37,619 nucleotides of DNA, from assembly GCA_007694025.1 (NCBI GenBank), contig RECL01000266.1, positions 1 to 37,619 of the forward strand, in the 5' to 3' direction. The first letter of the stretch is position 1, and every line of letters starts with the position of its first letter. The DNA comes from Spirochaetaceae bacterium (GTDB taxonomy: Bacteria > Spirochaetota > Spirochaetia > DSM-27196 > SLST01). Under the pieces are notes generated by a model, which saw only the letters and a program-made list of their open reading frames with translations, did not search any database and had not been told where the DNA came from. Shown here one piece after another: positions 15,653-26,162 of the stretch. A program made the position numbers and the translations under genes.

Positions 15653-17071
15653 ATGGTGAACCGCCGGCTCTCCACGACCCGTCAACTCCTCTTTCTTGCG
15701 CTCATCGCAGCACTGACGGGCATCGTATCAGCGCAGACCTCCGGCACAGCGGATCAGAGCCGGTCGACGATGGTCGCGCGACTGCGCGTTTCTATTCGAG
15801 AGCCGCAGATACGGCTCTCATGGGTGCCCGCCGACACCGCGGGCAACACGATCGTGTACCGCTCGACCACCGAGTTCGCAGACGACTCGTTCGAGCACGC
15901 GGAAGTCGTCGGTATAGTGGCAGCGGACGTATCGTCGTTCATCGACGTACCGCCGCAGGCGGGGTCGTATCACTACGCGGTCGTCGCGACCGACGCCGAC
16001 GGAACGCCCTTCCGGTCGATTGTTCCGGGGCGCAACTCAACACTGCGTCCGGTCGAGATCGCCGGACCGCCCGAGCTCGACGGTCCGGCGCGGATCACGT
16101 CGATCGCCGCAATAGCAACGCCTGAGGGCGCGGTCACCATCGCGATCGGCGCCGACCGGACCGACCGGATGATCGCGGTGTACCGGTCGACATCGCCGAT
16201 TCGGGTCGCGACAGACCTGGCCGGGGCGTCTATGTTCCGGCGTATCGACTCGCGGCTGGGGTCGATCGACGACCTGCCGGTACCCGGGATCGGGTACTAC
16301 TACGCGGCATTCGATGCGCAAGAGGTTCTCGACGGCACCGTGACGGTACGACCCGGAGAAAACGCGACGGTTCAGTCGGTTACGATCCCTCTGCCGGAGT
16401 CGGCTCGTCCGCCGACGCCGCGACCGGCCCCGGCGCGCGTAGCCGAACCGGCGGCGCCCGATAGCGACGTTGACGCCGACGGACGGCTCGCACCCGAACC
16501 TGACGCCGCACCCGAACCTGGAGTCGCGCCCCAACCGGAGGTCGACGCCGTGCAGCCGCCGACGGTCGTGACGCGGGGTATTCCACTGCCGTTCCTGCGG
16601 CCGCAGGCGGGCTTCACGACGGGAACCGCGCTGAGCGACCCGCGGCGGTTCCTGCCGGAGCCGGTTGCGGTTAGTGTCGATACCGAGCGCGCGATCGGCC
16701 GACTGATGGAACGAAGCGTGCCGGTCACGATACCCGAGGGCCCCCCGATTCTGCGCGAAGACCGTCTGGCCGATCCACAGGGCATCGAGTACAGGTTGCG
16801 AACGATCATCGACGGCCCGATCAGGCTCTTCGCGTGGGAAGAGGCGATCGAACAGATCGACGCGCTCGCGTCGCTACCGCTGCCGTCTGATCTGCGCGCG
16901 CGGACGCATTACTATCGGGGCCGGGCGCTGCATGCGATCGGCGAGCGGCGTGAGGCTCTGCTGGAGTTCCTGGTAGCCAGGGAGTACCACTACGCGGAGT
17001 CGCAGGCATGGATCCGCGTCATTCTGGCCGAACTCGCCGGTTCGGCTACAGCTTCTCAAACCGGATTCTGA
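15653..17071 (+). CDS. Hypothetical secreted protein: two FN3-like repeats, Pro-rich linker, TPR-like tail
   Basis: Signal peptide (..GIVSA-Q); duplicated VYRST...D.P...Y.Y....PG.N.T unit; APEP-rich linker; C-terminal HYYRGRAL...EALLEFL. Confidence 0.75.
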   Translation: MVNRRLSTTRQLLFLALIAALTGIVSAQTSGTADQSRSTMVARLRVSIREPQIRLSWVPADTAGNTIVYRSTTEFADDSFEHAEVVGIVAADVSSFIDVPPQAGSYHYAVVATDADGTPFRSIVPGRNSTLRPVEIAGPPELDGPARITSIAAIATPEGAVTIAIGADRTDRMIAVYRSTSPIRVATDLAGASMFRRIDSRLGSIDDLPVPGIGYYYAAFDAQEVLDGTVTVRPGENATVQSVTIPLPESARPPTPRPAPARVAEPAAPDSDVDADGRLAPEPDAAPEPGVAPQPEVDAVQPPTVVTRGIPLPFLRPQAGFTTGTALSDPRRFLPEPVAVSVDTERAIGRLMERSVPVTIPEGPPILREDRLADPQGIEYRLRTIIDGPIRLFAWEEAIEQIDALASLPLPSDLRARTHYYRGRALHAIGERREALLEFLVAREYHYAESQAWIRVILAELAGSATASQTGF

Positions 17072-19073
17072 TCGCCGCCTGCACGCGCGCGCCCGGGTCG
17101 ACGCTGAGCGCGAACCGCGGCACGATGCATGTACTCTGATACTCGACTATCCGGCCCTCCGTTCCGTTTTCGCCGGTTCGTCGGACGGTACGGACCGGAA
17201 AGCACCACGGGTCGCACTCGGGGAACGTCACGGTGATCGCAGTGTGATTCGCCAGATCCTCGATGCGAATCTCCGACACGGTCTCGTGCCGGTTGTCATC
17301 GGGGGCAACCTCCTGGAGCCGCCGGCGTCCACCGCGGACGAAGATCCGCTGACTGTCCGGATCGGCCGACTCGAACGCGAGGTTGATCTCCGGAGCAAAC
17401 AGACCCTCGAGTCTCGAGTCCCCGGTGCATCTGATCGTGTACTCCAGGTCGATGATACCGCGCTTGAACTCGTACCGCTTATCGAGCTCGACCGGCAGTC
17501 GGGCCTTGCCGTTCGCCCGCACGGAACCGGCGGCGGACAGATCGAGTCGCTGGGTGTCGCGCTTGCCGACCGACCGCGCGTACAGCGCGTCGGTGAAGTT
17601 ACCGAGCTCGGATGCGGTCCCCGCGATGAACTGCTCTACGGTCGTGTCCGACGAAAGGAAGTGGTCGACAAAGCCCCTGCGAGGATACCGGTCGTAGCCG
17701 AGCGCCTGGTCGTCGGTCGAGTGATAGCTCTCGCGTTGCCGTGAAAAGGTGTCGAGGTAGTTCCAGCTCGTCGGGAGGTAGTCGAGTTCGAACAGCATAC
17801 CGCCGACCTGATGGACGTACGCGTTGAGATCGGTACCCTGATAGAGGTACTCGTCGAGCCCGTCCATATCGAAGTCGACGGCTACGATCGACGGGCTGAA
17901 TATGCCACGCTCGCGGGTCTTCTTCTCCGCCTCGATCAGCGCGCGGTAGACCTGTTTGCGCAGGTGCCCCTGGTAGATCCCGCCGTGCTGTCCGTGCCAG
18001 TACGCGTTGTGGCACTGCCCGCGCCATAGCTCCTCGCGGGCGGCCTGCTTTCGGTACTTGTCGCCGCGGATCTGATTCACGAGCACGTGCGTATACTGCA
18101 TCTTCGCGTACATCTGGTTGCTTTCGGCGTACCTCGTGAGAAACTGCCGGAAGTGGCCGCCGATCATGTATCCGTTGCGGCCGTTGGACGCGTTGTCGCG
18201 TACGCTCGAGTAGGAGTCCTGCTGGTCGGGCGTCATCGACCAGTAGAGCAACTCCTCAGACCCCGCGGAGTGGAAGTAGGCGCGCCGACGCGGCCGACTC
18301 TCCTTCACGTACTGCGATGGGAGCCCGACCTCGATCCATTCCCGGTTCTCCTTGAGCAGCTCGACGAACTGCTCGAGCCATGGACTCGGTGGCGAAGGTC
18401 GCTCAGGCAGTCGTCGGCCCCCGTCGTCGATCAGGACGTGCACGCGCGACCCGTCATCGTCGCTTTGATCGCGCAGGTAATCGACGATACGCTCGGGCGG
18501 TTCGGTTCGTGCGAGGAGTTTGAGGTCGTGACAGACCGGGAACACAACGATGGTCTTGCCCTGATCCTCGGTGAGGCACGGACGACACAGGTCTTCGTCG
18601 CGCATCCCGGCGGTCAGGAAGTGGTAATCGTCAAGGAAGACGTATTCCATCCCGCTTGAGCGCAGCGTGCTCGCAAGACTCGGCTCCCATACATGCTCGG
18701 TTATCCACGTGCCACGAGGCCTGCGTCCGAACCGCTTGCGGAGATAGGTCGTGAGGCTTTCGATCTGTCCAAGCCGGTCGAGCCGTGGTATCAGGCTCAG
18801 AACCGGGTCGTAGAAGCCGCCGCCGAGGATCTCGCACTGCTTGCGGGTGATCATCTCCGACAGGACGTCGGTGTACTCGGAGTGGTGCTTCTCGAGCCAC
18901 TGCAGCAGCTGTCCGGAATAGTGCAGCGTCACAGGAATCTGGGGTGCATGGTAGAGCACGCGCAGGTAGGGCTTGAGCGAGGTCTGGTATACGTGTTCTA
19001 TCTCGTCATCGCTGGCTCCGACGGGCAGACTGTTCGTCGAACCAAGGATGAGCCTGGCCTTCTTCATCGCCAT
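17046..19073 (-). CDS. GH57 alpha-amylase/4-alpha-glucanotransferase-like protein
   Basis: LHYSGQLLQWL, EILGGGFYDPVL, GTWITEHVWEP, YVFLDDYHF, YWHGQHGGIY, DFDMDG. Start is 19073 or 19067. Confidence 0.88.
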   Translation of the reverse strand: MAMKKARLILGSTNSLPVGASDDEIEHVYQTSLKPYLRVLYHAPQIPVTLHYSGQLLQWLEKHHSEYTDVLSEMITRKQCEILGGGFYDPVLSLIPRLDRLGQIESLTTYLRKRFGRRPRGTWITEHVWEPSLASTLRSSGMEYVFLDDYHFLTAGMRDEDLCRPCLTEDQGKTIVVFPVCHDLKLLARTEPPERIVDYLRDQSDDDGSRVHVLIDDGGRRLPERPSPPSPWLEQFVELLKENREWIEVGLPSQYVKESRPRRRAYFHSAGSEELLYWSMTPDQQDSYSSVRDNASNGRNGYMIGGHFRQFLTRYAESNQMYAKMQYTHVLVNQIRGDKYRKQAAREELWRGQCHNAYWHGQHGGIYQGHLRKQVYRALIEAEKKTRERGIFSPSIVAVDFDMDGLDEYLYQGTDLNAYVHQVGGMLFELDYLPTSWNYLDTFSRQRESYHSTDDQALGYDRYPRRGFVDHFLSSDTTVEQFIAGTASELGNFTDALYARSVGKRDTQRLDLSAAGSVRANGKARLPVELDKRYEFKRGIIDLEYTIRCTGDSRLEGLFAPEINLAFESADPDSQRIFVRGGRRRLQEVAPDDNRHETVSEIRIEDLANHTAITVTFPECDPWCFPVRTVRRTGENGTEGRIVEYQSTCIVPRFALSVDPGARVQAAIRIRFEKL

Positions 19074-19134: not shown

Positions 19135-19163
19135 ATTCTACCGCCCCGCCGACCGCTTGTAAA
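19135..19163 (-). promoter_or_regulatory. Putative sigma70 promoter for the GH57 gene
   Basis: TTTACA (19163-19158), 17 nt, TAGAAT (19140-19135). Confidence 0.6.
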
Positions 19164-19174
19164 TGGGCCAAGGA

Positions 19175-19765
19175 CTACTGGAGCAGGTTCGACAGGAATC
19201 CCTGGTCGAACGCCGCGAACGCGAGCGCGACGAGCCCGAGCGTGACGAACGTGATCGGCTTTCCGCGCAGACGAGCGGGCACCCACTCGGACTCGATCTG
19301 CGCGACGATCGACGCGACGATCGTCGCGACGAGCACGAAACCCACCCCGGCCGCGACCGCGGCAGCGATGCTGTGGGCGAACCCGAGTCCGACCTCGGCG
19401 ACGATCAGAGAGACCCCGAGCACCGCGCTGTTCACTGCCACAACCATCAGGTCATCCGATACAACCGCGTATACCGACGGCAGCGCTACACGCAACCCGT
19501 GATCGATTGCCGAGACGAGTCCATAGACCGTGAAGACGTAGACGAGAGTCCGGAGAAACCAGAGGCCGAGCGGACCGAGGATCAGGCTGCCCACCAGCCA
19601 CGTCGCGGCGGTCGTCACCGGCATCAGCACCGTCATGATCGCACCGACCCGCACTATGCGCCCCAGCGAGGCCTCGCCGTCGACGATCAGGCAGAAGCCC
19701 AGGAACCGGTCGAGCACGATGTTCGACGCCAGAACGAAGGTCAATACGACAGCGATCGTGCTCAC
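19175..19765 (-). CDS. rnfA: Rnf subunit A (divergent)
   Basis: NIVLDRFLGFC, FLRTLVY, NSAVLG, VPARLRGKPITFVTLGLVALAF. Confidence 0.85.
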   Translation of the reverse strand: MSTIAVVLTFVLASNIVLDRFLGFCLIVDGEASLGRIVRVGAIMTVLMPVTTAATWLVGSLILGPLGLWFLRTLVYVFTVYGLVSAIDHGLRVALPSVYAVVSDDLMVVAVNSAVLGVSLIVAEVGLGFAHSIAAAVAAGVGFVLVATIVASIVAQIESEWVPARLRGKPITFVTLGLVALAFAAFDQGFLSNLLQ

Positions 19766-20466
19766 ATGCGCTCCAGGGACTCAGAGTCGAGCTGGGGGTC
19801 GGGACCAGGCTGGGGGTCGGGATCGGGCGCGTCGGCCGGGCGGGTCGCGCGAAGCACCCTTCGCGCATCGATCCACGCGTGAAGCGCCATGATGTATCCG
19901 ACCACAAGAAAAGCGCCGGCCGGAAGCGCGAACGCGGCGACACCGGATGGTTCGGCCGCGAATCGTATCACGCCGTCGAACGATCCGATCGCAAAGAGCG
20001 TCAGCGTGGCGCTTCCGATGATCTCGCGAACGGTGCCGATGAGGGTCAGGCCGAGCAGGAACCCTATGCCCGTCCCGACCGCATCGCGGACGATGTCACC
20101 GGCAGGCTCCCCGTCGGACCGGACGGCCGAGAACCCGCCGGTGAGGATGAGCGAGTTGATCGCAAGAAGCGGTACGTAGATGCCAAGCGCCGCGGAAAGG
20201 TCAGGAGCGTACGCCCGGACGATGAGATCGGCGATCGACACGAAACCGGCGACAACGGCAAGGACCACCGGAAAGCGGATACGCCGGTCGATCAACTCGC
20301 GCAGCAAAACAAGCGTGCCAGCGCTCAGGACCAGTACCAGCGTGAGCACGACGCCCAGGACCAGCGGGTAGATCGCGTGCGTCGCAACCGCGAGCGACGG
20401 ACACAGCCCCACCGTGAGTACGATAACGGGGTTCTCGCGGAAGACGCCGCGCGGCATGCCGGTCAA
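19762..20466 (-). CDS. rnfE: Rnf subunit E (divergent)
   Basis: ENPVIVLTVGLCPSLAV, LGIYVPLL, VREIIGS, LPAGAFLVVG. Start is TTG 20466 (GGAGG upstream) or ATG 20457. Confidence 0.87.
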   Translation of the reverse strand: MTGMPRGVFRENPVIVLTVGLCPSLAVATHAIYPLVLGVVLTLVLVLSAGTLVLLRELIDRRIRFPVVLAVVAGFVSIADLIVRAYAPDLSAALGIYVPLLAINSLILTGGFSAVRSDGEPAGDIVRDAVGTGIGFLLGLTLIGTVREIIGSATLTLFAIGSFDGVIRFAAEPSGVAAFALPAGAFLVVGYIMALHAWIDARRVLRATRPADAPDPDPQPGPDPQLDSESLERM

Positions 20467-20615
20467 CGGGCCCTCCACGCGACACGCGCAGCAGCTTCCA
20501 GTTCGGCCGTCGACTCCAGGCGCCCCGACAGCAGAAGCGCGACCAGCGAGATGATCAGCGCTACAATCACGACCACAAGGGTTACGGTACCGACCCTTTG
20601 AACGCTTTCGTTCAC
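20463..20615 (-). CDS. 50-aa single-TM peptide at the rnfG position (mini-RnfG, no FMN-binding domain)
   Basis: Below the ORF-track cutoff; read by hand. GGGAGG SD; GTG overlaps the rnfD TGA; MNESVQRVGTVTLVVVIVALIISLVALLLSGRLESTAELEAAARVAWRAR; its TGA overlaps the rnfE TTG. Confidence 0.75.
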   Translation of the reverse strand: MNESVQRVGTVTLVVVIVALIISLVALLLSGRLESTAELEAAARVAWRAR

Positions 20616-21715
20616 GGTTTCCTCCCGGCGCCGGCAATCGCACGCACACGGCCTCCGGGGTCGCGGCGACGGCGAGTCCCGAATCGGCGCGGCCGCAACC
20701 CGCGGTTCAGAAGCGGCACAACGGTGTTCATGACCAGCACCGCAAACGCTCCGCTACCGGGGTACGCACCGTAGAAGCGGAACAGAAACGTGAGCGCGCC
20801 GGCTCCCGCTCCGTAGACTAGCATCCCCGTCCGGTTGGTCGGAGCGCTGCTCAGGTCGGGGGCCAGGTAGAACATCGCGAACACCACGCCGCCGGAAAGC
20901 GTATGGAACAGCACATCGCCGGCCATGTACCCGTCGCCGAACACCAACCCGCCGAAGACGCGTGTCACGATCGCGTACGACGCGAAGTAGGCGGCGGGGA
21001 TCTCCCAACGAATAACCCGCGTCGCGACCAGCGCGATAGTGCCGATCAGAAGCAGCGCGACCGCCCCCTCACCGATCGCGCCATCGACGTACCCCAGGAA
21101 GAGGTCGACATAGCCGCCCGGCAGGTTCGCGCCCACAACGGTCAGAACGCGTGCGTTCAACCAATCGGTCACCGACGCATCGACGCTCGAAACGGGGTAA
21201 CCGACCGCGCGCAACAGACCGACGGGTCCACCGACGGGGCCGGATGCGGTCTCGAGCGCGCCGCGCACGGTGGCAAGAACGGTGGCCGACGACTCCCCAT
21301 CGACTCCGGGTCCGATCATCTGACGATTCCAGGAGTAGAACGCAAAGACAAGCCCGCCGGCGGCGGCATTCATCCAGTTTCCGCCAAGGCCACCGAAGCT
21401 CCACTTGACGACGAGCATCGCGAAAATCGCGGCGGTCGCCGGCACGTGCAGACCGACCCAGGGCGGCATCGCCATCCCGATCAGCAACCCGACAAGCACG
21501 GCGCTACCGTCGCGTAGCGTCGGTCGACGCCGGATCAGGCCGATCACGCCTTCGCTGATGACAGCGGCACCGACCGCAACCATGATGATAAACAGCGCGG
21601 GTGTCCCGTACCGGTAGACTCCCCAGCCGGCTGCCGGCAGGAGCGACAGCGCGATTGCCCACATCATGCGGCCGGTCGTTGCCCGATCGTGAAACTGCGG
21701 CGGATTCGCCGACAT
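20612..21715 (-). CDS. rnfD: Rnf subunit D
   Basis: MMWAIALSLLPA, DGSAVLVGLL, FGGLGGNWMN, DGESSAT flavinylation-like motif, GAIGE. Start is 21715 (GAGG SD) or 21730. Confidence 0.9.
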   Translation of the reverse strand: MSANPPQFHDRATTGRMMWAIALSLLPAAGWGVYRYGTPALFIIMVAVGAAVISEGVIGLIRRRPTLRDGSAVLVGLLIGMAMPPWVGLHVPATAAIFAMLVVKWSFGGLGGNWMNAAAGGLVFAFYSWNRQMIGPGVDGESSATVLATVRGALETASGPVGGPVGLLRAVGYPVSSVDASVTDWLNARVLTVVGANLPGGYVDLFLGYVDGAIGEGAVALLLIGTIALVATRVIRWEIPAAYFASYAIVTRVFGGLVFGDGYMAGDVLFHTLSGGVVFAMFYLAPDLSSAPTNRTGMLVYGAGAGALTFLFRFYGAYPGSGAFAVLVMNTVVPLLNRGLRPRRFGTRRRRDPGGRVRAIAGAGRKP

Positions 21716-21726
21716 GACCGTACCTC

Positions 21727-23034
21727 TCATCGGTTCGCCTTACCGTTGCGTAACCCGTCGACGAGCGGGATCCGCGACGGGCAGACGTACCCGCACCCGC
21801 CGCACTCGGTACAATCGAAGAGCCCGTAGTCGACCGCATCGCCCGAGCGACCGTGAGCCACCAGCTTGTAGAGCTGCGCGGGATCGAGCCCCATCGGGCA
21901 CGCCTCGGCGCACCGACCGCACCGGATGCATCCAACGATCGGCGCCGCGTTCACTTCGGCCGCGGTCAGCACAAGGACGGCCGTCGTGTACTTGAGTACG
22001 GGAGTCGTCAGGTCCGTTGTGGCGTAGCCGCGTAACGGTCCACCGATGACGATCCGGGCGACCGGGTCGGTCACGCCGCCACATTCGGCAAGCAGGCCCC
22101 CGATCGGGGTCCCGATACGCACCTTGATGTTCCCCGGCCGGGCGACGCCTCTCCCGGCCACGGTGACGACCCGCTCGTAGAGCGGCTTGCGGGTGACGAC
22201 GGCCTCCCAGATCGCGTAGAGCGTCGCGGCCGAAATCGTTACGCAGCCGACATCAATCGCGTGCCCATCAGACGGCACTTCCAGACCCGTGACCGCGCGG
22301 ATGAGCTGCCGTTCGTCACCCTGCGGGTACTTGACCGACAGCCGCACGTAGTCGCGTCGGCGACCGTCGTTGTCGTGTGCCCGCATGCGTCGCATAGCAT
22401 CCCGCTTGTCCGCGCCGATTCCGACCGCGACGCGGTCGGGTGCGAGCAGTCGCTCGACGATCTGAAGCCCCTCGAAGATCTCGGCAGGGTGCTCGACCAT
22501 CAGCCGGTGATCGGCACAGACGTACGGCTCGCTCTCTGCACCGTTGACGATCAGCCACCGGCACGAAGCAGCCGCCGTGGCGTCGATCGCCGCGTGCGTC
22601 GGCTGTGATACGCCCGACATACCAACCACGCCTGCGTCCTCTATGAGCCGAAGGAGCGTACCCGGGCGTAACGTCTTCCATTCATGCCTCGCAAGGACCT
22701 TTCCCAGGCGGTCAAAGGAACCGGCAAGGTCGATGACTGCCGCCGTGGAGATGACGCCGTCGGGAAGCGTCACGGGGCGAATCTCACGGACCAGCCCGGG
22801 AATCGGGCTGTGCACGTGAGCGCAGAGGTCGCCGACCGCCCGACCGATTCGCGTGCCCTCGCCGACCCTGTCGCCGGGAGCCACGCACAGTTCGGCGTCG
22901 GGACCGTGCGACTGCCGTAGCGGGACGATCGAGACCGCCGGAAGGATCGCGTTCCTGATCGCGCGCCGGTGCGCCGCGTGCTTGTGGTGGACCGGATAGA
23001 GACCCCCGACCGGAAAGGTTGCCGTACGCATCAT
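21727..23034 (-). CDS. rnfC: Rnf subunit C
   Basis: VHSPIPG, NGAESEPY..ADHRLM, KYPQGDE, and two ferredoxin motifs CIRCGRCAEACP and CTECGGCGYVCP. Confidence 0.93.
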   Translation of the reverse strand: MMRTATFPVGGLYPVHHKHAAHRRAIRNAILPAVSIVPLRQSHGPDAELCVAPGDRVGEGTRIGRAVGDLCAHVHSPIPGLVREIRPVTLPDGVISTAAVIDLAGSFDRLGKVLARHEWKTLRPGTLLRLIEDAGVVGMSGVSQPTHAAIDATAAASCRWLIVNGAESEPYVCADHRLMVEHPAEIFEGLQIVERLLAPDRVAVGIGADKRDAMRRMRAHDNDGRRRDYVRLSVKYPQGDERQLIRAVTGLEVPSDGHAIDVGCVTISAATLYAIWEAVVTRKPLYERVVTVAGRGVARPGNIKVRIGTPIGGLLAECGGVTDPVARIVIGGPLRGYATTDLTTPVLKYTTAVLVLTAAEVNAAPIVGCIRCGRCAEACPMGLDPAQLYKLVAHGRSGDAVDYGLFDCTECGGCGYVCPSRIPLVDGLRNGKANR

Positions 23035-24548
23035 GCCACGAGCCTTCGACGGCGCAGAGCATCAAGAAGGCTCGAATGGAACCTGTATCGCAACGGTCGG
23101 ATTGGTGCGAGTATCAGGAGTGGCAGCGACGTCAGGAGAATGTACATAGCGTGAAGCACGATGTGCGGGTACCGCGAGTATAGTGCGTCGGTCGGTGTCA
23201 GAACAACCCCCACGGGTCGCCCGAACGACGCGAGCATCGAAACGATCCCGCCAGGAGCCGAGCCGATCGCGTGATCGATCCAGCTCTGATCGAACGTCGC
23301 GACGGTCTCGCGAAAGCTCGAGTACGACCCGTCCGCCTCTTCGCGAAACCGGTTCAGCGTGACCACCGTCCCGGGCGCCGGGAAAGCATACGCGTAACCG
23401 TACGCGAGTGCCTCCTGGTACGCGCGGTGCGCGATGTAGTCGGCGATGCTCGGTAACTCGAAGCGGGCATCCGACCAGAGACGCAGCAGGTCCTCATGGT
23501 CGAATCCAGCCGCGCCAGCCGCCTCGACAACGGGTCGACGGACCGGGGCATCGGGCATGAGTCGATCGACGATCGGCGGCAGTACGAGCAACAGGGTCCA
23601 CAGCGCGGGCAACCAGCGCTCGAGGCCTCCGAGACCACGGTGTGAGCGCAGGATTGACACGGGCACGAACGGCCGATGCCCGTCGTCATGGCGCCGTGCC
23701 GCAGCGATCAAATGCGCCACAGAGCGGGCAAGAACGAGCACCGCGCCGGCTCCGCTCGTACCAATCAGGTACGCAACAAGCGCGCGCCCACCCGCCACGG
23801 CGACCACGTAGACGCCCGACAGGCCGACCACCGCGGCGACCATCGCGACCGCGCGCACCGACACGAGCGCGACCACGTCGGACCTTCGGGCGCGCTCGTC
23901 CCGATCGATTCTGTGCCCGACGGCCGTCGATGCAAACGTGACGGCCGCGGCAACCGCGGCGGCGAGCGACCCGGTAGCGATCACCGGTACGAGCGGAACG
24001 GCCAGCGCGAGAACCACCACTCGGCCGCGTCCGTAGAGCACGGCGGTGCCTCCGACGACGAGCGCGAACAGTGCGACCGACAACGCGTACGGAACAGCGT
24101 ACCATTCGGCGACCCGGCTTCCCGAACCAAGCACATCGCGCACAAACCGGTTCGCGTTCCACAAGGTTCCGGGAATCCGCGCGTAGAGCGCGTTCGCGCC
24201 ATCGATCACGAAGTACAGACCAAGGGCCGTGATGAACGGATCGCGACGCGGATCGAGCGGATCGAGCCGGGTCAGCGCCGCCGGAAGCGACACCGCGTCG
24301 ACCCCGTCGAACCTGCTCACAAGCACCTTCGTCGTGTGCGGTGCGACGATGTGGTCGACTCCGGCGGCGGCCAGGAGCGCAGCGGCTTCGTCGTGACTCA
24401 GCGGCGTCACCACCGTGAGGTACGGATCGAGCGGCTGCGAGCGCCGGTACAGCGATGGAACGATAGCGACCGCGGTCACCGCGAACAGCAGGACGACCGA
24501 AGAGAGGCACACGATGAGTGTCTGGAGCGCAGGGAACCGGTCGATCAC
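23031..24548 (-). CDS. Hypothetical polytopic membrane protein coupled to rnfC
   Basis: Several hydrophobic segments flanking two soluble regions; 4-nt start/stop overlaps with both neighbours. Confidence 0.75.
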   Translation of the reverse strand: MIDRFPALQTLIVCLSSVVLLFAVTAVAIVPSLYRRSQPLDPYLTVVTPLSHDEAAALLAAAGVDHIVAPHTTKVLVSRFDGVDAVSLPAALTRLDPLDPRRDPFITALGLYFVIDGANALYARIPGTLWNANRFVRDVLGSGSRVAEWYAVPYALSVALFALVVGGTAVLYGRGRVVVLALAVPLVPVIATGSLAAAVAAAVTFASTAVGHRIDRDERARRSDVVALVSVRAVAMVAAVVGLSGVYVVAVAGGRALVAYLIGTSGAGAVLVLARSVAHLIAAARRHDDGHRPFVPVSILRSHRGLGGLERWLPALWTLLLVLPPIVDRLMPDAPVRRPVVEAAGAAGFDHEDLLRLWSDARFELPSIADYIAHRAYQEALAYGYAYAFPAPGTVVTLNRFREEADGSYSSFRETVATFDQSWIDHAIGSAPGGIVSMLASFGRPVGVVLTPTDALYSRYPHIVLHAMYILLTSLPLLILAPIRPLRYRFHSSLLDALRRRRLVA

Positions 24549-25024
24549 AACAGCGAGAACGCGAGCGCTATGAAGAAGCCCAGGATGACGCCAACTGTTA
24601 CCTCGGTGGGAGTATGGCCATTGACCTCCTTGACGGGTTCATACGCGTAGCCGGTGAGTTCGCGCATTCGTGCGCCAAGCTCATTGAGCGCGCGGGCCTG
24701 CATGCCGGCGCTCCTGCGGACACCGAGCGCATCACGGATAACGAGTACGCCATAGAAGACGCTGAGCGCGAAGATCGGCGAGTTGGTCCCGTTCGCGAAG
24801 CCGATCGACGTCGCAAGCGACGTCACCAGCGAGCTATGGCTGCTCGGCATGCCGCCGGTCTTCCAGAACATCGTCGACACGACCTCCCCGGATGTCCGTG
24901 AGCGCTGCCGCGTGATGTCGATAATCGTCTTCAGCAGCTGCGCGATGAACCAGGAGAAGAAAGCCGATAGGAACACCGGCCCCGACACCAGACCGTACAG
25001 GGCGGTGACGCGATGCGCGTCCAT
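24545..25024 (-). CDS. Divergent PAP2 family (DUF212) membrane protein
   Basis: AQLLK, TGGMPSSHSS, DALGVRRSAGMQA, KEVNGHTPTEV. Start at ATG 25024. Confidence 0.92.
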   Translation of the reverse strand: MDAHRVTALYGLVSGPVFLSAFFSWFIAQLLKTIIDITRQRSRTSGEVVSTMFWKTGGMPSSHSSLVTSLATSIGFANGTNSPIFALSVFYGVLVIRDALGVRRSAGMQARALNELGARMRELTGYAYEPVKEVNGHTPTEVTVGVILGFFIALAFSLL

Positions 25025-25031
25025 GCATCGT

Positions 25032-25060
25032 AGAGTGTCGGCACGCAATGGCTTTGTCAA
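25032..25060 (-). promoter_or_regulatory. Putative promoter of the PAP2-rnf operon
   Basis: Perfect TTGACA (25060-25055), 17 nt, weak -10 CACTCT, then 7 nt to ATG. Confidence 0.45.
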
Positions 25061-25098
25061 GCAAAGCCACCGGGTGGTGACGACGGACCCTCGGCGCG

Positions 25099-25107
25099 TG
25101 GTATGCT
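25099..25107 (+). promoter_or_regulatory. Extended -10 for the pseudouridine synthase gene
   Basis: TG-G-TATGCT, 8 nt before ATG 25116. Confidence 0.5.
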
Positions 25108-25115
25108 CAGAGGCG

Positions 25116-26162
25116 ATGCCAGACGCACCAGTAGTCCGGATTGGAGACGACGACAGCGGCCGCAGGCTCGACCGCGTACTCAGAAAGGCATTCCCGGCGG
25201 TTCCGGTCGGCAGGATCTTTCGCGCGATCCGATCGGGAGAGGTCCGAATCAATGGTCACCGCGTACCGGGCAGCCACCGGGTCGCAAGCGGCGACGAGCT
25301 GCGGATCCCCCCGGCGTTCTCCGGCGAGCAGTCGCTCACCGCCGAGCACTCCCCCTCCCCCGACCTTCCGATCGAGCAGCGCGACCGGATCGTCTTCGCG
25401 AACCACGACATCGTCGTCGTGAACAAACTCGCCGGAGAGCTCACGCACGGCGAGCAATCGCTCGAAACGCTCGTTCGGCGGTGGGCGCCTGCGCCGTCGG
25501 GGATCAGCTTCCGGATCGGCCCCGCGCATCGGCTCGACCGCAACACCAGCGGGCTGATCGTCTTCGGGATCACTCGAAGCGGTGCCGAAGAGGCTGCGGC
25601 GGTCTTTGCGAGCGGATCGGTCGTGAAACGGTACGTTGCGCTGCTCGGCGGGCGGATCGAAACGAGCGCGGTGTGGGACGAGCCGCTCGAACGCGACGGC
25701 TCGTCGATGATCACCCGGGTCCATGGGCGAGAGTACTCGCCCCAGCGAGAGTACTCGCCCCAGCGAGAGTACTCGCCCCAGCGAGAGCACTCGCGGGCGA
25801 TGGCGGTCACCCGCGTCGACCCGATCGCTACCACCGAAACGCGGACGCTCGCGATCGTGACGATCGAAACGGGCCGGACGCACCAGATCCGGGCGCACGC
25901 CGCGTACCACGGGCACGCGCTGTGCGCCGACGTCAAGTACGGCGGAACCGGATCGGGCGTGCCCGCGCGGATGGCGAACGGAAAGCCGTTTCGCCGCTAC
26001 CTGCTGCACGCGGCATCGCTGACGCTTCGTCGACCGTCGCAGATCCTTGGGTTCGACCACCTGTGGGCCCCGCCGCCTCCCGACTCGCTGCGCGCGATCG
26101 AAGCGCTCTTCGGCCGTCGCGTGCTAGAGACTCTCATCGAAACGGTGGCAGCGCACCGGTAG
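25116..26162 (+). CDS. RluA family (RluC/D-like) pseudouridine synthase with S4 domain
   Basis: RRLDRVLRK S4 domain, VNKLAG, catalytic HRLDRNTSG, TGRTHQIRAH, LHA. Confidence 0.93.
   Translation: MPDAPVVRIGDDDSGRRLDRVLRKAFPAVPVGRIFRAIRSGEVRINGHRVPGSHRVASGDELRIPPAFSGEQSLTAEHSPSPDLPIEQRDRIVFANHDIVVVNKLAGELTHGEQSLETLVRRWAPAPSGISFRIGPAHRLDRNTSGLIVFGITRSGAEEAAAVFASGSVVKRYVALLGGRIETSAVWDEPLERDGSSMITRVHGREYSPQREYSPQREYSPQREHSRAMAVTRVDPIATTETRTLAIVTIETGRTHQIRAHAAYHGHALCADVKYGGTGSGVPARMANGKPFRRYLLHAASLTLRRPSQILGFDHLWAPPPPDSLRAIEALFGRRVLETLIETVAAHR
25727..25794 (+). repeat. 18-bp in-frame tandem repeat, 3 copies plus a partial
   Basis: GCGAGAGTACTCGCCCCA x3 then GCGAGAGCACTCGC; encodes REYSPQ x3 REHS. 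Confidence 0.97.

Follow-up and report, generated by a model that had tools for sequence, protein, structure and literature searches.

A reduced rnf cluster of a soda-lake spirochaete as an apparent intermediate in the stepwise and repeated loss of Rnf subunits from a conserved locus

The DNA analysed in this study (the window; 37,619 nucleotides, contig RECL01000266.1) comes from a soda-lake spirochaete, a Spirochaetaceae bacterium whose assembly (GCA_007694025.1) consists of 449 contigs and is 94% complete. Positions 19175-25024 of its minus strand carry seven intact open reading frames (ORFs): a DUF212/PAP2 gene, a gene for a membrane protein designated HYP, rnfC, rnfD, a miniature gene in the place of rnfG (mini-G), rnfE and rnfA. 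Rnf has a central place in the energy coupling of anaerobes; its mechanism, i.e. Na+ pumping driven by the [2Fe-2S] cluster of RnfA and RnfE, has been resolved only recently. To judge from gene order and sequence, the cluster is the local ortholog of the canonical rnfCDGEAB operon at a conserved PAP2-HYP-rnf-GH57 locus, and its missing parts can be regarded as true derived losses from that operon at the same locus. The features of the region are the following.

24545-25024, minus strand: DUF212/divergent PAP2 family membrane protein (PAP2), 159 aa, first in the chain; PF02681, 145.4 bits
23031-24548, minus strand: polytopic membrane protein (HYP), 505 aa; no Pfam or NCBIfam match
21727-23034, minus strand: rnfC, 435 aa; TIGR01945, 408.9 bits (over the cut-off of 245.95)
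20612-21730, minus strand: rnfD, 372 aa; PF03116, 271 bits; TIGR01946, 194.8 bits (under the cut-off of 207.05)
20463-20615, minus strand: mini-G, 50 aa; no family match
19762-20457, minus strand: rnfE, 231 aa; PF02508, 131 bits; TIGR01948, 139.2 bits (under the cut-off of 213.4)
19175-19765, minus strand: rnfA, 196 aa; PF02508, 80.6 bits; TIGR01943, 102.8 bits (under the cut-off of 229.3)
19135-19163, minus strand: sigma-70-like promoter match TTTACA-17-TAGAAT, 10 of 12 consensus positions (a consensus match only)
17046-19073, minus strand: GH57 glucanotransferase/amylase-like gene, 675 aa; PF03065, PF09094 and PF09095

The original prediction, made from the letters of this DNA alone, described seven genes chained by start/stop overlaps. 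All frames are indeed intact and 4-nt overlaps occur at five of the six junctions; the mini-G/rnfE junction is either a 5-nt gap (rnfE starting at ATG 20457) or a 16-nt overlap (alternative GTG at 20478). The start of PAP2 was placed at ATG 25024, because all homologues have about 159 aa. RnfD, RnfE and RnfA are probably diverged members of their families, since the Pfam families were matched while the NCBIfam scores stay under the cut-offs. In the full operons of related loci rnfB sits between rnfA and GH57; here this spacer measures just 101 bp and, as predicted, holds no rnfB. The promoter match within it suggests that GH57 may be transcribed on its own. The architecture recurs in an independent genome (G010), with four Rnf proteins 91-96% identical to those of the window, and at this locus eight more species of the genus likewise lack rnfG and rnfB, which argues that the cluster is neither a chance arrangement nor an assembly artefact. 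The DNA of the window was matched in soda-lake and alkali-sediment metagenome runs of two studies, three of the runs containing at least half of the sampled words.

We read 58 spirochaete loci of this type, 47 of which span the region from HYP to GH57. The 58 loci share the gene order PAP2-HYP-C-D-(G)-E-A-(B)-GH57, and the locus is class-wide, in agreement with the earlier suggestion of a spirochaete-wide family. Among the 47 loci we found the complete C-D-G-E-A-B set (21 loci), C-D-E-A (10), C-D followed by a short G, E' and A' without B (5), C-D-G-E-A without B (2), C-D-stub-E-A (2, the window and G010), C-D-stub-E-A-B (1), C-D only (2) and no rnf gene at all, i.e. PAP2-HYP-GH57 (4). In this set, E, A, G and B never occur where C and D are missing. 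Two sister genera of the window's family retain both rnfG and rnfB; all nine sufficiently complete loci of the window's own genus lack both. The original prediction spoke of a coordinated loss of the part of the complex made up of RnfB, RnfA/RnfE and RnfG. The losses are real and derived, but G alone or B alone is missing in some lineages, and all four RnfA/RnfE Cys are still present in 8 of the 12 loci that have neither G nor B; the reduction was evidently stepwise and repeated, having arisen several times rather than in one coordinated event.

Trees of the flanking genes (HYP and PAP2, independent of rnf) present the window's genus as a starred clade (99), sister to full-operon loci with a support of 100, and show another reduced pair neighbouring a full locus. 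When the labels full and reduced are mapped on the flank tree of 40 rows, 7 changes are needed, of which starred branches force at least 5; with the six contig-truncated loci dropped (34 rows) there are 6 changes, at least 4 of them forced. Four apparent stops (in rnfE of L093 and in rnfA of L112, L043 and L053) were considered as marks of pseudogenes and rejected, as they reflect tblastn overrun past the true stop; the tblastn row of L077 extends into the next gene, rnfB. No frameshifts or stops were seen in the reduced clusters that were read.

Mini-G occupies the slot of rnfG in full operons, and an in-register alignment matches its product to the N-terminal membrane helices of 11 full-length RnfG. 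Neither FMN_bind nor any other Pfam domain matched this 50-aa helix stub, and an RnfG with a periplasmic FMN_bind domain and a flavinylated Thr was not found at the locus, which bears out the claim that the RnfG flavin domain is absent. Only the window and G010 have mini-G: the two copies agree at 42 of 49 residues, with no change in the helix, and have a ratio of nonsynonymous to synonymous substitution (dN/dS) of 0.59 at few sites. Where both rnfD and rnfE were read in other species of the genus (seven species), the stop of rnfD overlaps the start of rnfE and there is no mini-G, so it is expendable in the genus. Mini-G is a deletion remnant of rnfG, its N-terminal membrane helix left over, and it may still be made as a protein.

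In canonical Rnf the [2Fe-2S] cluster is held by C25 and C113 in RnfA together with two Cys in RnfE, according to the available text of two structural studies (Vitt et al. 2022, PMC9588780; Kumar et al. 2025, PMC11889175). Read from alignments to 9ERI_A and 7ZC6_A, the RnfA of the window keeps C25, and has Ser for C113, Asp for Y105 and Val for T111; its RnfE keeps the first cluster Cys (GLCP) and has lost the second (NC to NS). Two of the four ligands are thus Ser in the window, one in each subunit, as originally predicted, and the four-Cys set is incomplete; these losses, like the changes of Y105 and T111, mark the sub-lineage of the window. In the A. woodii work, Fd (ferredoxin)-dependent NAD+ reduction is abolished in AE1 cysteine mutants, and strains with RnfA Y105A or T111G do not grow at low Na+ (Kumar et al. 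2025, PMC11889175). Of the alignment columns conserved in 12 full-operon sequences and then scored in the window's genus, 58 of 125 are retained in RnfA, 57 of 101 in RnfE, 119 of 163 in RnfC and 106 of 142 in RnfD. One locus with a full C-D-G-E-A-B operon (L091, genome G032) already has Ser at RnfA C113 and an altered RnfC loop (GMGGEAVPTRLK); cluster-ligand loss can therefore precede the loss of G and B.

RnfC retains both 4Fe-4S motifs (CxxCxxCxxxCP twice, CIRCGRCAEACP and CTECGGCGYVCP), in line with the original prediction; they are also intact in 51 of 51 RnfC sequences of the locus set and in all five Treponema- and S. thermophila-like loci. The NuoF-like domain is recognised in the window (PF01512, E 7.8e-35), and the motifs ESEPY and KYPQGDE(R/K)QL are kept. 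The prediction had confined the alterations to RnfB, RnfA/RnfE and RnfG. This does not stand: the Gly-rich loop at the start of the NuoF-like FMN (flavin mononucleotide) domain of RnfC, which, by analogy with NuoF/Nqo1, would be an FMN/NADH-holding site, is degenerate too. We compared this loop between the window, 34 other loci and three solved RnfC chains. The chains have GMGGATFPTHVK, GLGGAIFPAAVK and GLGGATFPTHVK, full-operon loci are identical or nearly so, and the two C-D-only loci have the loop intact or nearly intact. The window has GMSGVSQPTHAA, without the canonical pattern GxGGAxFP..VK; the loop is unconserved in all nine RnfC sequences read from the genus, and the RnfC columns that lost constraint cluster at residues 138-155. 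The available main texts of the Rnf structure papers do not name the loop residues.

The flavinylation-type Thr that had been predicted for RnfD is present as well: T150 (in DGESSAT) stands opposite T156 of 9ERI_D, the A. woodii RnfD, given as the covalent-FMN site in the consulted text, together with the riboflavin ligands N123 and D249 (Kumar et al. 2025, PMC11889175). By alignment, both ligand positions are kept (N121 for N123 and D292 for D249). The Alkalispirochaeta-type loci, i.e. L100, L104, L107 (Alkalispirochaeta alkalica), L067 and L099, encode a G-like protein of just 155-162 aa that carries a DxxSGAT-type site and whose gene escapes tblastn; FMN_bind is over its cut-off in one of four such proteins tested. 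In these loci the RnfD flavinylation motif is gone, and RnfE and RnfA lack most or all Cys ligands. They are a mirror image of the window, where the site on D is kept and G is gone.

Selection on the cluster was assessed by the Nei-Gojobori method. Between the window and G010, dN/dS is 0.10 for RnfC, 0.14 for RnfD, 0.25 for RnfE and 0.24 for RnfA, and 0.21, 0.08 and 0 for HYP, GH57 and PAP2, respectively. Full-operon pairs and reduced pairs gave 0.00-0.07 and 0.11-0.27 for RnfA, 0.04-0.09 and 0.12-0.34 for RnfE, and 0.05-0.15 and 0.14-0.33 for RnfC and RnfD, the synonymous distances within the genus being 0.6 to more than 1. By this measure RnfA and RnfE evolve 3- to 6-fold faster than in full operons. 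A dN/dS near 1, i.e. decay, would have refuted the original prediction; the values for the four rnf genes are 0.10-0.25. These genes are under purifying but relaxed selection and do not look neutrally decaying.

A relative-rate control averaged identity over 11 outgroups with full operons (seven in the case of PAP2). For the sister genus, the four-Cys sub-lineage and the Cys-lost sub-lineage of the window's genus, in this order, it gave

PAP2: 0.59, 0.59 and 0.58
HYP: 0.24, 0.24 and 0.24
RnfC: 0.61, 0.48 and 0.44
RnfD: 0.63, 0.55 and 0.44
RnfE: 0.72, 0.51 and 0.37
RnfA: 0.83, 0.54 and 0.34

The speed-up is specific to rnf, because the flanking genes PAP2 and HYP show none. RnfA and RnfE, the most conserved subunits in full operons, are the least conserved in the Cys-lost sub-lineage, and constraint dropped in two steps, with the loss of G and B and then with that of the cluster ligands.

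A second rnf operon, rnfB, FMN_bind genes and apbE, for which the original prediction had suggested a genome-wide search, are all present in the genome. Contig C242 carries a complete paralogous rnfCDGEAB set, with an FMN_bind RnfG and the only RnfB over the cut-off in the genome; there is one ApbE gene. Since this second Rnf is complete, the cell is probably not reliant on the cluster of the window for ferredoxin:NAD+ coupling. Contig C89 (4690-8697) encodes an NqrB-C-D-E-F-like set with no NqrA/RnfC gene alongside, most subunits of which are under the equivalog cut-offs, with nqrD (NF006777) just over; such a set occurs in most related genomes. On contig C311 (L001:3-2593), a gene cut off by the contig start joins an RnfD domain to two FMN_bind domains (492 aa are visible); two small membrane ORFs of 191 and 179 aa follow, the second of them a weak Rnf-Nqr match (21.7 bits). 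Contig C425 (9116-9988) has a lone rnfD-like gene of 290 aa (TIGR01946, 238.9 bits, over the cut-off) with no rnf neighbours. A tblastn search of the whole genome for a relocated locus-type rnfG or rnfB matched only the C242 and C89 paralogs, and the RnfG and RnfB of C242 are 30-42% identical to the locus-type proteins. Other Rnf or Nqr sets occur in 41 of 41 related genomes, and wherever RnfB was detected in the genus, the genome has a C242-type paralogous operon. The genome G024 (98% complete), which has a cluster without G and B and with all four RnfA/RnfE Cys, contains no RnfB over the cut-off anywhere (PF04060 or TIGR01944) and two other Nqr/Rnf-type A/E pairs with FMN_bind genes.

The noncanonical Rnf of Treponema pallidum, named in the original prediction as a similarly placed cluster, is encoded by the co-transcribed genes tp0147-tp0153, with TP0152 as RnfC, TP0151 as RnfD and TP0149 as an RnfE-like protein, and an RnfG-type FMN motif was not found, as far as the available text of that study goes (Deka et al. 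2015, PMC4436053). The original prediction was correct on this point. A Treponema-like genome in a single contig (G142, 1.14 Mb) has PAP2-rnfC-rnfD-small transmembrane ORF-E'-A'-GH57, the order published for T. pallidum and also the locus and gene order of the window, without HYP; two larger genomes of the same family do have HYP. Like the window, the Treponema-like form has neither RnfB nor an RnfG-type FMN domain, and keeps the Cys motifs of RnfC. It is, however, further gone, with an RnfD lacking the flavinylation motif and E' and A' lacking the cluster Cys. The window differs here from the consulted description of T. pallidum, in which no flavinylation motif is reported, in that its RnfD keeps DGESSAT. 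With the Thr of RnfD and one Cys each in RnfA and RnfE still in place, the cluster of the window can be considered an intermediate in a class-wide series, and the odd Rnf of the syphilis bacterium appears to be the end point of these losses.

Against canonical Rnf (references: Clostridium tetanomorphum 7ZC6, Azotobacter vinelandii 8AHX and Acetobacterium woodii 9ERI), the RnfC, RnfD and RnfA of the window are clear homologues of solved chains (phmmer E 3.7e-87, 4.7e-40 and 1.5e-24), as is RnfE, and the order C-D-(G)-E-A is common to both. The RnfC 4Fe-4S motifs, the covalent-FMN Thr of RnfD and the riboflavin-ligand positions are shared. The differences are that canonical Rnf has six subunits, whereas the window has no RnfB, an RnfG cut to its membrane helix, Ser at two of the four [2Fe-2S] Cys, changes at RnfA Y105 and T111, and a degenerate RnfC loop. 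Na+-NQR (NqrA-F) has the same membrane core; the window lacks NqrF and NqrC, and its RnfC keeps the Fe-S motifs. NqrA is a relative of RnfC without its cofactors, so RnfC-type subunits can be remodelled.

Two-subunit NQR/RNF-like systems are, like the window, partial derivatives of the Nqr/Rnf core, and in the accessible parts of the literature such partial systems are proposed to pass electrons one way across the membrane via flavins (Meheust et al. 2021, PMC8238504; mSystems 2024, PMC11334425). As described there, they have an NqrB/RnfD-like domain fused to an NqrF-type PF00175 domain, whereas the RnfD of the window has PF03116 only; an FMN_bind partner is retained in them and the flavinylation site of RnfD is absent, the opposite of the window cluster on both counts. 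The window further differs in having a separate RnfC with Fe-S motifs and in retaining RnfE and RnfA.

These features suggest that the complex encoded in the window would be unable to act as a ferredoxin:NAD+ ion pump: RnfB, the entry point for ferredoxin, and RnfG, the flavoprotein shuttle of the periplasm, are lost, as are half of the cluster ligands, two Na+-coupling residues and the canonical RnfC loop. We give about even odds to the reading that RnfC and RnfD form a maintained Fe-S/flavin wire that conducts electrons one way and no longer pumps, since selection fixes the chain from the RnfC Fe-S clusters to the RnfD flavin while the parts of the pump are gone. A low-potential cytoplasmic partner would dock on the remodelled RnfC; electrons would run from its two 4Fe-4S clusters to the riboflavin of RnfD and on to the covalent FMN (T150) at the periplasmic face, flavinylated by ApbE, where a periplasmic acceptor would replace RnfG, and RnfE, RnfA and the stub would serve as a scaffold. 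The partial NQR/RNF-like systems proposed in the literature provide a precedent for such one-way transfer (PMC8238504; PMC11334425). Several observations weigh against this one-way wire. If the loop is needed for FMN, the cytoplasmic entry point into RnfC would be left undefined. The A/E cluster may be in use in the relatives that lack G and B and keep four Cys, so a role as scaffold only may not hold throughout the genus. Relaxed constraint on all four genes also fits a fading function, the total loss of rnf from four loci shows that the locus is dispensable in some lineages, and no RNA run is among the sequencing runs listed as containing the stretch. As to the history of the cluster, a gene tree of RnfC and RnfD, which was left out of the event counting, groups the reduced forms, in conflict with the flank trees; we read this grouping as long-branch attraction, a spread of the reduced operon by transfer being a less likely alternative.

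The original prediction had RnfC and RnfD exchanging electrons with a separate periplasmic flavoprotein or quinone. A version of this model in which RnfC oxidises NADH and passes electrons through RnfD is rather unlikely in our view. The recognised NuoF-like domain, the two retained motifs and the loop of the C-D-only loci speak for it, and NAD(P)H-using partial NQR/RNF-like systems have been proposed, according to the available text (PMC8238504; PMC11334425). NADH entry at RnfC is nevertheless weakened by the loop, which in solved chains and full operons reads GMGGATFPTHVK with little or no variation and in all nine RnfC of the genus is unconserved, the columns without constraint clustering at residues 138-155. 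Export to quinone meets the further difficulty that the best menA-like match scores 89.8 bits against a cut-off of 102 and that no MqnA/D-type match was found in the 94% complete genome. A cluster with no function of its own, made redundant by a second Rnf and under selection only against harmful misfolded membrane proteins, would likewise be seen at every stage up to complete absence, with relaxed genes, a mini-G that resembles a deletion scar (dN/dS 0.59) and other Rnf/Nqr sets in all related genomes. Such slow loss is improbable given the intact frames of the reduced clusters, dN/dS of 0.10-0.34 over synonymous distances of this size, and the eight RnfC Cys and RnfD flavin residues that are still fixed. 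It is also quite improbable that the RnfB and RnfG of C242 complement the cluster in trans, so that it still works as a ferredoxin:NAD+ pump. The C242 operon could supply both proteins, every genus genome with a detected RnfB has such a paralog, and the four Cys of the 8 loci are most easily understood if the complex is still fed and drained. Yet in the window the two ligands, Y105, T111 and the RnfC loop are altered, the donor proteins are distant from the locus-type ones, RnfA and RnfE have accelerated, and G024 combines a cluster lacking G and B with no RnfB over the cut-off.

PAP2 and HYP had been counted as parts of the Rnf operon. Despite their translational chaining to rnfC, they are better viewed as conserved neighbours than as Rnf subunits, because both stay beside GH57 in the four loci without any rnf gene. 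HYP has a homologue in 35 of 41 related genomes, and a scan of genome contigs for it found 41 loci, all of them spirochaetal, including that of Alkalispirochaeta alkalica; PAP2 lies upstream of HYP in related loci, the rnf-less ones included. HYP, always paired with DUF212, is spirochaete-specific. Its AlphaFold2 model (predicted local distance difference test, pLDDT, 85.7; predicted TM-score, pTM, 0.80) has a predicted topology of one transmembrane helix, a periplasmic alpha/beta domain, five transmembrane helices, a second periplasmic domain and two final transmembrane helices, and the motifs DPxDPRxDP, HRxFxP and YxxHRxxQ are invariant. The best Foldseek matches are SecDF/MmpL3 (E 5e-3, TM-score 0.28), and VIA gave Z 7.5-8.9 to NPC1-related, MmpL, Patched and SecDF proteins over about 200 aligned residues; the model bears a weak resemblance to the resistance-nodulation-division/sterol-sensing domain (RND/SSD) fold. 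The ESM Atlas yielded no feature hit of use for HYP, and its structural rows (TM-score 0.19-0.24 to unrelated methyltransferases) were dismissed. HYP was also considered as a replacement of RnfG or RnfB and ruled out, as it occurs in full operons and in rnf-less loci. Elsewhere in the window, an 18-bp tandem repeat (25727-25794; 3.8 copies, 98% matches) encoding REYSPQ repeats lies within an RluA-type pseudouridine synthase gene (24783-26162, plus strand).

Noncanonical Rnf of spirochaetes is treated, in the literature searched and as far as its available text goes, only by Deka et al. 2015 (PMC4436053) and later papers of the same group, with no comparative series, and the available text of an RNF/NQR review (PMC12174285) does not mention incomplete rnf clusters. 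The orthologous locus, its stepwise and repeated reduction and the degeneration of the RnfC loop were not found in the literature searched; supplementary tables of flavinylation surveys may list such clusters. The oddity of T. pallidum is thus already published, and the comparative series and the loop degeneration are apparently new here.

Among the loci, full operons stand beside ones that lack B, G or both, ones without the cluster ligands, ones reduced to C-D and ones from which rnf has gone, a natural series whose intermediates are intact and under selection. The half that pumps is the first to disappear in this series and RnfC-RnfD the last, which points to a separate function of the latter. 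More tentatively, and as a possibility that we would place below even chances, RnfC-RnfD may be a self-sufficient transmembrane wire that spirochaetes repeatedly kept when RnfB, RnfG and the A/E cluster were lost, with the Rnf of T. pallidum as an end point and not a ferredoxin:NAD+ pump. That noncanonical Rnf, the base of energy models of the syphilis spirochaete, gains an evolutionary context, and its pumping ability becomes a testable question, for which there are relatives that are free-living and cultivable or at least abundant. If the reading as a self-sufficient wire is true, T. pallidum Rnf would not be the ferredoxin:NAD+ ion pump that current energy models assume, and the free-living soda-lake relatives would constitute a natural deletion series for finding the job of the remnant.

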